From Minisyncoccota bacterium (GTDB taxonomy: Bacteria > Patescibacteriota > Minisyncoccia > Phycocordibacterales > GWA1-40-21): 64,000 nucleotides of DNA. The notes beneath the pieces were generated by a model. It saw nothing but the letters and a program-made list of their open reading frames with translations, had not been told where the DNA came from and made no database searches. The position numbers were made by a program, and so were the translations under genes. Below are positions 49,546 through 52,581 of this stretch, in pieces (within the stretch, counting starts at the first letter, position 1; every line of letters begins with the position of its first letter). The stretch is from positions 13,494 through 77,493 of the forward strand of contig JBAYKL010000002.1 of NCBI GenBank assembly GCA_041664585.1, given 5' to 3'.

Positions 49546-49612
49546 CAGTTAGATTTGGTGAAAGCGACCTATTTGCGTCACCGAAGGTCGCAGATTTCGT
49601 TTAATCATTACT

Positions 49613-51025
49613 ATGAAGAAAACTGTCTTTTATTCTTGGCAATCAGATTTACCTAACGGCACAAACCGTACCCTTATTGAGAATGCTCTAAAAGAGGCAG
49701 CTAAAGAAATAGGAGACGATTCTGATACTGACATTGAACCTGTTATTGATAGAGATACTCAAGGTGTAGCCGGTGCGCCAAATATAGCAACAGCGATATT
49801 TGAGAAAATTGATTCAGCTGATCTTTTTGTTGCGGATGTATCAATTATTGGAAGCGCAAAGAAACGCGCCGTTCCAAATCCAAATGTTTTAATAGAGTTG
49901 GGATATGCTCTTAAAGCCTTGAGACACGAGCGTATCATATTGGTTTTTAATAATGCATTTGGAAAGGTAGAAAGGTTACCATTCGATTTGAGAATGCACA
50001 GAACCCTCACTTATAGTTGTACCGAGTCTGTCACAGACCGATCGGAGATAAAAAAGGATCTGATTAAGGATTTTAAGTCAGCGCTACTGGTAGGTTTTTC
50101 TCATGTCGCTTCCAAGAAAACGGCGACTCCAATTATAGATATCATAAAAAATAATACACCGAGCAAAAAGATTGAGCTTAGAACACATCTAACAAGCGTA
50201 TTAAACGACTTAGAAAAGTTTCAATCACCGATGAAGAGAGATGGTGGAACAGTAGAAGAGCTATTAGCTTCTATTCCTAAAACAGAAAATATATCAATGG
50301 AATTCTCAAAGCTTATCGAAACTATAGTTTTGATGAACGATATGGATTCAGCTAAAGAAGTATTTCAGTGGTTCGGTAAAATTTTAACCAAATATGACCC
50401 CATTCTTGAAGCAGGAGGTCAAACTTGGAACTGCGATGGAGATTATTACAAATTTATGGGTCATGAATTATTTGTAAATTTTGTTACACTATTTTTAAGA
50501 GAAGAAAAGTGGAGTGAATTAAAAGAGCTCTTAAAAATACCCTTGCAAGTTGGTCCAACACAACATCACATAAATGGAAGGAAAGAATCATGGACCAAAC
50601 TATCCGAACATTCACCATGGATTCTTGACGAAGGAAAAACCAGAGGTCGGGTATCTCCTCATGGAGATCTCTTAAAGAATAGACATGAGAATGGTGAATT
50701 AGCTTCGGTTATTCCGTTTAAAGAATTCACTGAAACCGATTTCTTTTTACATTTATATGGCGAAGGACAGACTCAAGATAGATATTATGGTCCTTGGTAT
50801 CCAAGAAGCGATATTTGGCTTCATGATACACCTAAATTTGTTTCAGAAATGGTTGATTATCCTACTGCTATAAAAATATGTAGCGTTTTACAAATAAGCG
50901 ATGTGGACGAATTAAAAAGACGATTAACTCATCTCACAATTCATTGGGATTGGCATTCTCCAATAAGTGACACTGATATAGCAAAGATTGGGACTATAGG
51001 TGGAGCGCAAATTATCCATGCTTAG
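49613..51025 (+). CDS. TIR-like (ThsB/DUF1863-type) N-terminal domain fused to large unknown C-terminal domain
   Basis: N-terminus VFYSWQSD...LFVADVSII...LIELGYA resembles TIR-like domains (ThsB begins VFFSFHYQD); about 330-aa C-terminal region without known motifs; directly downstream of tRNA-Asn. Confidence 0.4.
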   Translation: MKKTVFYSWQSDLPNGTNRTLIENALKEAAKEIGDDSDTDIEPVIDRDTQGVAGAPNIATAIFEKIDSADLFVADVSIIGSAKKRAVPNPNVLIELGYALKALRHERIILVFNNAFGKVERLPFDLRMHRTLTYSCTESVTDRSEIKKDLIKDFKSALLVGFSHVASKKTATPIIDIIKNNTPSKKIELRTHLTSVLNDLEKFQSPMKRDGGTVEELLASIPKTENISMEFSKLIETIVLMNDMDSAKEVFQWFGKILTKYDPILEAGGQTWNCDGDYYKFMGHELFVNFVTLFLREEKWSELKELLKIPLQVGPTQHHINGRKESWTKLSEHSPWILDEGKTRGRVSPHGDLLKNRHENGELASVIPFKEFTETDFFLHLYGEGQTQDRYYGPWYPRSDIWLHDTPKFVSEMVDYPTAIKICSVLQISDVDELKRRLTHLTIHWDWHSPISDTDIAKIGTIGGAQIIHA

Positions 51026-51193
51026 ACTAAGAATATCAATTAAACCCTTTTTTGTTAAAATCAAAAAATAATATAAAACTTTTATAAATAAACCAAGACA
51101 TTACCGCATAAGCCTTTTCTGTGCCTCATATGTAGCATTTTGGGCAACTACATGTTTTATATAAATTGTTTTTCTGTATAATTATTGGTAGCA

Positions 51194-52126
51194 ATGAAAT
51201 ATTATATTGAACACAAAATAAAAACATTATCCCATCTAAACGTTGGTATTGATAAAAATCTCCCAGAACCCTTAATGAATATAGATGGATATATCTTTAA
51301 ACAGTGGTCATTTAACTACAGAGATGGCTGGGGTGGTGATGCATGGATAGTATCTAAAACTATTGAAAGCAACTCGTGTACTGAAGCTATAAATCTTTTT
51401 CGAGAGAATCTAGACAAAATTTTGAGAAAAATCGCCTTCGTTTCTCAATGTTATATGGAGTTTTATATACAATCCTTTTTTATTCTTAGAGAAGACGGAA
51501 ACGCAGAAAAAAAGATCTGGTTCAGATTCTCCAATGAAACAGAAGGTGTTCCCCTACATTTCGATAACGAAGAATTAGATAATTATGAAAAAATTAAAAC
51601 TGCTTTTGATAACAATGCTTTCAGATATTTACAAGAAGCTAATAATTGTCAAAATTATGTGCCAAGATTGATGCTATTGTTTTCAGCGCTAGAAGCAATG
51701 TCAGGAAGAGTTGAAAAAGAAAAAACAAAGGAAGATGGTTCTATAGAGATCTATTATACTTATAACAAAGAGACTATGATAAAAATCATGGGTGGTGATT
51801 TATATAATGAAATATTTGGAACTGATGGCATCAGACACAAAATTAATCACGGTGATTATGTTGAGAATGTTTCAAAAAAGTTTTATACGGAATTAATACA
51901 TTACCAGATACTTGATTACTGTAATAAAAATTTAAATACTAATTTTGACTTAAAAATAGTTTCGCCAGGAAGATCTTTCTATGGAAACTACAGTATCACT
52001 GACTTCTTTATAAAACCTAAAGATCTAAATGCATCAATTAGTCTCAAAAATTTTGTTATAAAAGAGCAACCGCTAATGGTGGAAGGCTTTGTTGATATAA
52101 GACCCTTTGATACTAAAGCTTGGTGA
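51194..52126 (+). CDS. hypothetical protein with an Rx4H (HEPN-like) motif
   Basis: own TATAAT promoter; GIRHKINHG fits Rx4H; start at ATG 51194 preferred over TTG 51185. Confidence 0.35.
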   Translation: MKYYIEHKIKTLSHLNVGIDKNLPEPLMNIDGYIFKQWSFNYRDGWGGDAWIVSKTIESNSCTEAINLFRENLDKILRKIAFVSQCYMEFYIQSFFILREDGNAEKKIWFRFSNETEGVPLHFDNEELDNYEKIKTAFDNNAFRYLQEANNCQNYVPRLMLLFSALEAMSGRVEKEKTKEDGSIEIYYTYNKETMIKIMGGDLYNEIFGTDGIRHKINHGDYVENVSKKFYTELIHYQILDYCNKNLNTNFDLKIVSPGRSFYGNYSITDFFIKPKDLNASISLKNFVIKEQPLMVEGFVDIRPFDTKAW

Positions 52127-52208
52127 TAAATTTAGTTGACTCAAAGTGACCTGTTCGCATCCTGATCCCATTTTAAAAGTAGCTCAAAAACCCTTACAAG
52201 GTTTGAGA

Positions 52209-52238
52209 GGTCGAGTTGTTCAACCTGTGCGGGGAGCA
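52209..52238 (+). repeat. degenerate copy of the tRNA-Asn 3' end (possible att remnant)
   Basis: ggtcgagttgttcaacctgtgcggggagca versus the tRNA-Asn 3' end ggtcgtaggttcgatccctacccacggagca (30 vs 31 nt); the shared ends GGTCG...GGAGCA and similar length are the only support, so this is weak. Confidence 0.2.
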
Positions 52239-52240
52239 TA

Positions 52241-52287
52241 TATACTTTCTATATACATTATATATATCTTTGATATAATTTTTGTAT
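52241..52287 (+). promoter_or_regulatory. conserved extended -10 promoter module with TATC-N3-GATA palindrome (copy 1)
   Basis: tatactttctatata...tatctttgaTATAATttttgtat; ATG lies 8 nt after the -10 hexamer (leaderless configuration). Confidence 0.55.
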
Positions 52288-52581
52288 ATGAAAAATATTA
52301 AAGATAATTTTTTAACTGGTCTGTTTGCCTACTTTCCTATTGCTTACATATTAAACTTAATTGCATATAAAATTACTTACTATAATCTTTTCAGAACTGG
52401 TGTTTGGTATGATTTAATAGTTGGTGTTTCTACTTTTTATATTGGAATTATTATTTCAATAATTTACATAATTTCTTTTTTAGTTCGTTGGCACGACAAA
52501 GCACTTAAAAAAATTGACAAAGTTTTGTTTTCTATTTTTATATTATCTTTTTTTATTTTAGGATTAATTTATATTTTATAA
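52288..52581 (+). CDS. small polytopic membrane protein (leaderless)
   Basis: 97 aa with 3 TM helices; sits immediately after promoter copy 1. Confidence 0.45.
   Translation: MKNIKDNFLTGLFAYFPIAYILNLIAYKITYYNLFRTGVWYDLIVGVSTFYIGIIISIIYIISFLVRWHDKALKKIDKVLFSIFILSFFILGLIYIL

Follow-up and report, generated by a model that had tools for sequence, protein, structure and literature searches.

Effectors of the CAP12/PycTIR family (PF10137), which comprises the Cap12 TIR-STING protein of the cyclic-oligonucleotide-based antiphage signalling system (CBASS) and PycTIR of Pycsar, degrade nicotinamide adenine dinucleotide (NAD+) in abortive infection, and dimers of HEPN proteins form composite Rx4-6H RNase sites. 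In Thoeris, the TIR protein ThsB acts with ThsA or another effector. For TIR-plus-effector systems, about 30 effector types have been reported (10.64898/2025.12.03.692087). The single-gene system Swarozyc combines a DUF4062 TIR-like NADase with a C-terminal auxiliary domain needed for defence; its N-domain, which is distant to both TIR and nucleoside deoxyribosyltransferase (NDT) proteins, has a catalytic Glu, and the system is patchy, horizontally spread and triggered by a phage portal protein (10.64898/2026.05.01.722283). The immune systems of the ultra-small, mostly episymbiotic bacteria of the candidate phyla radiation (CPR) are poorly charted. Here we describe three genes, called P1, P2 and P3, which lie directly 3' of a tRNA-Asn gene in a Minisyncoccota bacterium (contig JBAYKL010000002.1, positions 13,494 to 77,493; this stretch of 64,000 nucleotides is called the window, and coordinates refer to it). 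A preliminary description of this DNA had taken them as a candidate defence module composed of a TIR-like fusion protein, a HEPN-like partner and a membrane peptide.

Results and discussion

The tRNA-Asn(GTT) gene (49474-49546, found by ARAGORN and by Rfam RF00005 with 71.5 bits) is the left anchor of the putative insert, and all three genes are on the same, forward strand. As described previously, a 470-aa open reading frame (ORF) follows the tRNA; this is P1 (49613-51025), which starts 66 nt past the tRNA end. After a spacer of 168 nt comes P2 (310 aa, from the ATG at 51194 to 52126; a mechanical ORF list used the TTG at 51185 and gave 313 aa), and after a further 161 nt comes P3 (97 aa, 52288-52581). 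P1 and P2 are identical to the NCBI proteins WC229_02335 and WC229_02330, respectively, both annotated as hypothetical, and the window corresponds to a metagenome-assembled genome of Candidatus Paceibacterota, a CPR lineage. A direct repeat with 22 of 27 nt identical encloses exactly P1, P2 and P3: its left copy, GGAGCAGTTAGATTTGGTGAAAGCGAC (49542-49568, forward strand), spans the tRNA end and consists of the last 5 nt of the tRNA and 22 nt of flank, and its right copy, GGAGTAGATGTATTTGATGAAAGCGAC (52672-52698, forward strand), lies 90 nt past P3 and is the candidate right end of the insert. On balance, we lean toward the view that 49542-52698 is an accessory insertion of about 3.1 kb at the 3' side of tRNA-Asn, which would carry three unrelated genes and not a co-evolving system, with P1 and P2 as independent candidates for abortive-infection or toxin genes.

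The comparison that bears most directly on the proposed pairing is the co-occurrence check, in which the module of the preliminary description did not hold. We collected 80 loci with a P1 relative and eight independent loci with a P2 relative. No P2, P3 or 459-aa ORF (the gene downstream of P3) was found by tblastn in the 80 P1 loci, and none of the eight P2 contexts had a P1 relative. The P1-P2-P3 arrangement recurs solely on a second contig (L088), whose P1 protein is identical and whose genes are equally long. Because neither P1 nor P2 co-occurs with the other in the loci compared, the pairing is refuted by the criterion that the preliminary description itself had set, and the three genes are, as far as these sequence comparisons go, neighbours and not partners. 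One could imagine a Thoeris-like system here, in which the TIR-like protein answers infection with a nucleotide signal and thereby activates the HEPN RNase, the membrane peptide or both; three adjacent same-strand genes within one repeat-bounded segment would suit it, pairs of TIR and effector are a known design, and the alpha/beta N-domain of P2 could in principle bind a ligand. However, the counts just given speak strongly against such a system, and the family sizes are far apart (more than 1800 clusters for P1 at 90% identity and about 344 for P2 at 50% identity). Furthermore, the two intergenic spacers, the large C-domain that P1 itself has, as in self-contained sensors, and the ORFan status of P3 all argue in the same direction, and P1 differs from Thoeris in having neither a conserved partner nor a match to ThsB_TIR (PF08937). 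We therefore regard this explanation as very improbable.

The TIR-like nature of the P1 N-terminus, which the preliminary description had proposed from the sequence, was borne out by several searches. Pfam matched P1, below its threshold, to CAP12-PCTIR_TIR (PF10137; E = 0.002, 18.6 bits, residues 42-113), the same family gave weak matches in 26 of 30 P1 relatives (best 1.1e-5), and the Pycsar TIR-effector models of PADLOC matched P1 at 4e-5; the Pfam NDT family PF05014 was a weak second match in P1 and its relatives. No NCBIfam family matched P1, and at E <= 1 Pfam found in it neither a ThsB-type TIR domain (PF08937 or PF13676) nor DUF4062. When a profile of the N-domain was compared with PDB sequences, the top match was PycTIR 8jsj (E = 0.031), and the alignment pairs the Glu motifs of the two; the GTAFELGYA motif of deoxyribosyltransferase 6qai can be aligned to it as well, and this Glu is the catalytic residue of both enzymes. 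In P1 the residue is E95 (codon GAG, 49895-49897, forward strand) in the motif NPNVLIELGYA, and it is invariant in alignments of 30 full-length and of 27 N-domain sequences; the motifs FYSWQSD, NR, DRD, VAD, NPNV.IE.G.A and PFDL are strongly conserved in the 30-sequence alignment. The AlphaFold2 model of P1 (predicted local distance difference test score, pLDDT, 84.6) has the flavodoxin-like TIR/NDT fold in its N-domain, and Foldseek against the PDB gave Cap12 TIR-STING 7un8 (SfSTING; E = 2.2e-4) as the best match, followed by NDTs, DNPH1 and the TIR of SPARTA. Taken together, the profile, fold and Glu-motif matches place the P1 N-terminus (about 150 residues, roughly 1-160) in the TIR/NDT superfamily as a predicted N-glycosidase-type domain, with E95 as the expected, putatively catalytic Glu. 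The remaining matches of P1, P2 and their profiles to PDB sequences were marginal, and those to the cysteine desulfurase 8d8s and to a heme-binding protein were judged spurious.

The nearest sequence family of the P1 N-domain is thus that of the CAP12/Pycsar TIR effectors, with which it shares the Glu motif NV.xE.G. Unlike those effectors, P1 has no STING, SAVED or cyclic-nucleotide-binding domain, and its TIR-like domain is N-terminal and joined to an unrelated helical domain of 300 aa. Neither a CD-NTase (cGAS/DncV-like nucleotidyltransferase) nor a pyrimidine cyclase was found near P1, either in the window or among the 150 nearest ORFs flanking 55 full-length P1 relatives, which were annotated with Pfam and PADLOC. 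The C-domain (about residues 170-470, some 300 aa), which is specific to the family, is modelled as all-helical with pLDDT mostly > 90, and neither Pfam nor two fold searches found a relative of it, in agreement with the earlier remark that it had no recognisable motif. For function, Swarozyc offers the best analogy, since it too is a single gene with an N-terminal TIR-like domain, a C-terminal domain and a patchy spread. However, the P1 N-domain has no DUF4062 match and the C-domains are apparently unrelated, so that the architecture alone is analogous. The other close designs among characterised proteins are the ligand-gated effectors PycTIR and Cap12. By analogy with these and with Swarozyc, the P1 C-domain might keep the enzyme off until a cue of infection or stress is sensed; once triggered, the helical domain would license oligomerisation, and the TIR-like domain would hydrolyse NAD+ or a related nucleotide through E95 and arrest the cell.

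P1 belongs to a very large, uncharacterised and horizontally spread family of stand-alone proteins. More than 1826 homologues were found, those listed being full length (about 470 aa) with 42-82% identity, and in a scan with one genome per species relatives were present in at least 568 genomes of many phyla. Their hosts include Patescibacteria, Bradyrhizobium, Pseudomonas, Mucilaginibacter, many cyanobacteria, Acidobacteria, Planctomycetes and Chloroflexi. The proteins are labelled hypothetical by RefSeq, and some are automatically named "CAP12/Pycsar effector TIR domain-containing" by UniProt. The N-domain (150 residues, 45-60% identity) is also joined elsewhere to several unrelated C-termini, for example a Pseudomonas type of about 320 aa, a Planctomycete type of about 500 aa and a leucine-rich-repeat (LRR)-like tail. 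The N-domain alone was detected in 68 plasmids, of which 56 are conjugative, and in 22 IMG/VR contigs; one plasmid copy (Ruegeria) overlaps the end of an AbiEi/AbiEii operon, and neither P1 nor its N-domain matched any deposited phage genome. A constant enzymatic head with variable tails would correspond to the usual design of conflict-system effectors. Apart from this, the protein with the LRR-like tail, from a Tepidisphaeraceae metagenome-assembled genome (MAG; L078, 4044-5051), has a TIR-LRR layout that recalls eukaryotic receptors.

The genomic contexts of the P1 relatives suggest mobility. In the Patescibacteria loci L009, L053 and L089/L090, P1 is followed directly by a convergent large serine recombinase with Resolvase, Recombinase and Zn_ribbon_recom domains (reverse strand; L009 7328-8671, L053 7419-8747 and L089 9406-10743, abutting the P1 homologue and overlapping it in L089). 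These recombinases are orthologous, with 53-62% mutual identity, and recombinases were also present within 5 kb of the P1 relative in four further loci (L007, L011, L047 and L056). Immediately upstream of the P1 relative, and in the same orientation, there is a tRNA gene in L009 (Ser), L012 (Gln), L053 (Arg) and the non-CPR locus L022 (Val); in L089 a tRNA gene is about 2.2 kb upstream, and this locus is a dense defence neighbourhood with LexA/S24, DpnII, GmrSD, AbiEii and HepT/MNT genes. In L022, from a Rhizomicrobium MAG, a lone P1 homologue stands between an intact tRNA-Val (5744-5818) and a tRNA fragment (7553-7584), the latter being a 30/32-nt copy of the segment of tRNA-Val from the anticodon loop to the T-loop; the arrangement looks like a single-gene insertion scar. 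P1 is thus, in one case after another, carried by tiny mobile units associated with tRNA genes, and P1 with its recombinase may constitute an integrative element of Patescibacteria reduced to two genes. Clustering of the 668 ORFs that flank P1 relatives gave no universal neighbour. A wider proposal, to which we give tentative credence, is that the P1 family is a widespread, unrecognised single-gene immune sensor-effector, which in CPR bacteria would travel as the sole cargo of serine-recombinase elements of about 3 kb at tRNA genes; the N-domain would then define a new clade of TIR/NDT effectors, because the TIR-like module is reused with several other sensor domains.

Several results weigh against an insertion with a P1 of immune function. 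P1 scores below the Pfam gathering cut-off for PF10137 (18.6 versus 24.7 bits), and its N-domain, which by sequence seems closest to that family, is formally outside it. MilB, NDT and DNPH1 are as frequent as TIR NADases among the top fold matches of P1, and thus the substrate is not fixed by the fold. The neighbours of P1 relatives are mostly housekeeping or lineage-specific genes (for example, a phosphoketolase-like gene and a P450 gene in cyanobacteria), so that the enrichment for defence islands is weak outside CPR; the defence-type neighbours are few, consisting of ParE, PIN and Uma2 genes, one type I restriction-modification (R-M) system and recombinases. As for the insertion itself, the direct repeat has mismatches, and a test that takes in both strands of the whole window gives it no significance (score 29 versus a null of 25.9 +/- 2.3), no serine recombinase was found in the 64-kb window at E <= 1, and no relative with an empty site was found, synteny stopping at L32 in every relative and the comparison hence being uninformative.

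Some of these points lead to another possible explanation of P1, namely that it has no immune or toxin function and instead processes nucleotides or nucleosides, as enzymes of the deoxyribosyltransferase, DNPH1 or MilB type do; it could be, for instance, a nucleotide N-glycosidase engaged in salvage or in the handling of modified bases, with the helical domain as a regulator. P1 resembles MilB, NDT and DNPH1 just as closely in structure, so that it may have the substrate of a nucleotide hydrolase; the weak second match to PF05014 and the alignment of the P1 Glu motif with the NDT nucleophile motif would be expected, and the housekeeping neighbours in most non-CPR loci, together with the local synteny conserved around P1 relatives in cyanobacteria, would fit a metabolic role. 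However, the distribution of P1 is patchy and crosses phyla at 40-45% identity, its N-domain has been shuffled onto several unrelated C-termini including LRR, and conjugative plasmids as well as an AbiE operon carry the same domain. P1 is, furthermore, cargo of serine-recombinase cassettes at tRNA genes, and by sequence it is nearest to PycTIR and Cap12, both immune effectors of the TIR-like kind. Thus, we consider a purely metabolic P1 unlikely.

P2 also stands outside the curated libraries, since no family in Pfam, PADLOC or NCBIfam contains it. A word-indexed search found only seven proteins; with an exhaustive profile search the family grew to 344 cluster representatives, almost all of them about 300 aa long. 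Among 50 diverse members with 21-41% identity, only R214, H219 and R260 are invariant, and E167, Q85 and W51 are nearly so. The preliminary description had noted that the sequence GIRHKINHG fits the HEPN Rx4H signature, and this stands: the motif R214-x4-H219 (RHKINH; 51833-51850, forward strand), the predicted HEPN active site, is the core of the family, as two of its residues are among the only three invariant columns, and HEPN proteins are enriched among the fold matches, which are weak. In the relatives (n = 50), only single weak matches to HEPN_MAE_28990 (0.0052), HEPN_Swt1 (0.0063) and the PADLOC model CARF_HEPN (1.8e-4) were seen; no curated HEPN profile matched P2 of the window, and P2 contains neither a SLOG nor a Macro domain, nor any other that is known to bind a signal. 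P2 appears to consist of an alpha/beta N-domain and a putative HEPN-like helical C-domain with the invariant Rx4H. The closest known kind is that of the HEPN RNases of defence and toxin systems, such as HepT, the C-terminal HEPN domain of AbiA, RnlA/LsoA, Csm6/Csx1 and ApeA; P2 might act as a dimeric metal-independent RNase, either as an effector of abortive infection or as a toxin.

P2 relatives are found in R-M operons and defence islands. One of them belongs to a type I R-M operon, in which it follows HsdS and RhuM (L171), and another comes after a HinfI R-M system (L005). In L001, the relative comes after a 360-aa multi-zinc-ribbon protein, near KAP NTPase and SMODS/SLATT genes, and in L003 after a zinc-ribbon protein, near an Eco57I-type methylase and UvrD. 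L173 has a YgjP-like gene, L174 has an overlapping upstream ORF of 71 aa amid housekeeping genes, and the short contigs L006 and L172 have uninformative neighbours. From the operons shared with R-M genes, one may suspect that P2 acts in abortive infection or as a back-up. P2 matched nothing in plasmids and phages.

The zinc-ribbon protein merits a separate remark. In L001 (4915-5997) and L003 (4894-5997), both of which are Patescibacteria defence islands, it is 360-367 aa long, has several CxxC motifs and 55% mutual identity, and lies 3 nt upstream of the P2 relative; it may be the partner of this P2 subclade. Its conservation is between L001 and L003 only, and it is not in the window. That P1 might be its counterpart was considered and rejected, the sequences being unrelated. 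About 2.2 kb past the P2 relative of L001 there is also a cluster (9166-11246) of a SMODS nucleotidyltransferase, a 211-aa ORF and SLATT_4, which resembles CBASS or a SLATT cluster.

The boundaries of the insert were examined in several ways. The direct repeat has a local alignment score of 29, with an empirical P = 0.01 in the 6 kb downstream, and a weak similarity reaches into the T-arm of the tRNA. The preliminary description had instead placed a degenerate copy of the tRNA-Asn 3' end at 52209-52238. This was rejected as a chance match: it shares only the 6-nt exact word GGAGCA with the tRNA, its score was reached by every shuffle of the downstream region and by 1163 overlapping 60-nt windows across the 64 kb, and the Rfam tRNA model found nothing there at E <= 10. 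For the empty site, we compared 80 metagenome loci that hold the NusB-NUDIX gene found upstream of the tRNA. Fifty relatives, with 59-80% identity in NusB, keep the order L32-NusB/NUDIX-RNase III-SMC; past L32, all 50 are without tRNA-Asn or the window genes, and the sequence upstream of L32 in these relatives matches nowhere in the 64-kb window. As the relatives share nothing beyond L32, the segment is not conserved core, in which respect the mini-island of the preliminary description holds up, and no empty site could be identified. The base composition was not decisive: the guanine-plus-cytosine (GC) content is 0.37 in P1, 0.31 in P2 and 0.21 in P3, with flanks of about 0.33. In general, GC is a poor island marker here because it differs gene by gene in this genome; for example, a GC-rich block (43250-44750, 0.43-0.45) covers the ThyX (Thy1) gene in surroundings of about 0.33.

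The segment resembles tRNA-linked integrative islands in lying directly 3' of a tRNA gene and, tentatively, in having an imperfect repeat that includes the tRNA end, and P1 relatives are found elsewhere beside tRNAs with a serine recombinase, in one case with a flanking tRNA fragment. It differs from such islands in that the window has no integrase or recombinase, and in its repeat, which is 22/27 nt and takes in just 5 nt of tRNA-Asn; no integrase domain was found among the flanking genes either. Since the recombinase of the other Patescibacteria P1 cassettes is missing here, the insert is probably either a remnant that can no longer move or a mosaic. Another reading is that P1, P2 or both are addiction toxins that stabilise mobile DNA, and that the region is ordinary variable DNA with a flanking repeat that arose by chance. 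The lack of significance of the repeat over the whole window and the missing recombinase would be in line with this, as would the status of P1 as the sole cargo of minimal recombinase cassettes and the 71-aa ORF overlapping the P2 relative of L174, which could be an antitoxin. However, neither P1 nor P2 has a conserved antitoxin-like partner in the window, the P2 relatives within R-M operons and defence islands occupy places typical of defence genes, and defence and addiction roles can coexist. We hold this reading to be improbable, and favour the accessory insertion of independent candidate effector genes.

P3 appears, from its sequence, to be an orphan three-helix membrane peptide. The 97-aa polytopic membrane protein announced previously is indeed an ORF of this length with three hydrophobic segments in its hydropathy profile, and a search of 5.8 billion proteins returned only P3 itself. 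The frame is unlikely by chance, because an open frame of its length was reached in only 8 of 2000 shuffles of this stretch of 20% GC. A consensus scan (10/12 matches) found a promoter-like site, TATACA-16-TG-TATAAT (52252-52279, forward strand), whose TG-extended -10 element ends at 52279, 8 nt before the ATG of P3. A leaderless P3 transcript, as proposed earlier, is therefore plausible in its position; the distinctive palindromic promoter is less well founded, since 20 promoter-like sites were found in the region versus 18 +/- 4.5 in shuffles, with no excess, and the evidence for the P3 promoter is correspondingly weak. The own promoter that had been attributed to P2 was not recovered, as the scan found no two-hexamer promoter in the interval 51026-51193. 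An Rfam scan of 49400-52900 showed no riboswitch or small RNA over noise.

Outside the insert, the genes upstream of tRNA-Asn encode L32, a NusB-NUDIX fusion, RNase III and SMC on the opposite strand, and downstream of P3 there are a 459-aa ORF without a family, a NUDIX gene, small ORFs and an ABC transporter. The 459-aa ORF (52811-54190, reverse strand) is just beyond the repeat-bounded insert and has a GC content of about 0.45 versus about 0.33 nearby; a strong terminator-like hairpin (52787-52762) is at its 3' end. Searches of Pfam, PADLOC, NCBIfam and PDB sequences gave no match for it, and none of the fetched loci holds a relative. The NusB-NUDIX fusion is one protein of 298 aa (48187-49083, reverse strand), an unusual fusion for an antitermination factor, and at least 80 related metagenome contigs carry it with 59-97% identity, in each case as part of the order L32-NusB/NUDIX-RNase III(-SMC).

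Conclusions

P1 and P2 are uncharacterised candidate effector genes of known general kinds, each of which could plausibly act by itself against phages or as a toxin, and each of which belongs to a sizeable family named by no curated library (Pfam, NCBIfam and PADLOC). Adjacency within one genome misled in this case, and this is a lesson for the reading of such loci. The most interesting lead is P1, owing to the size of its family, its mobility and its unmatched C-domain. P2 would add a new HEPN family located inside R-M operons. If P1-type proteins are phage-triggered NADases, they would bring a large TIR-like clade and a new sensor fold to the known single-protein defences, and their cassettes would illustrate in simple form how a minimal serine-recombinase element can move a defence gene.

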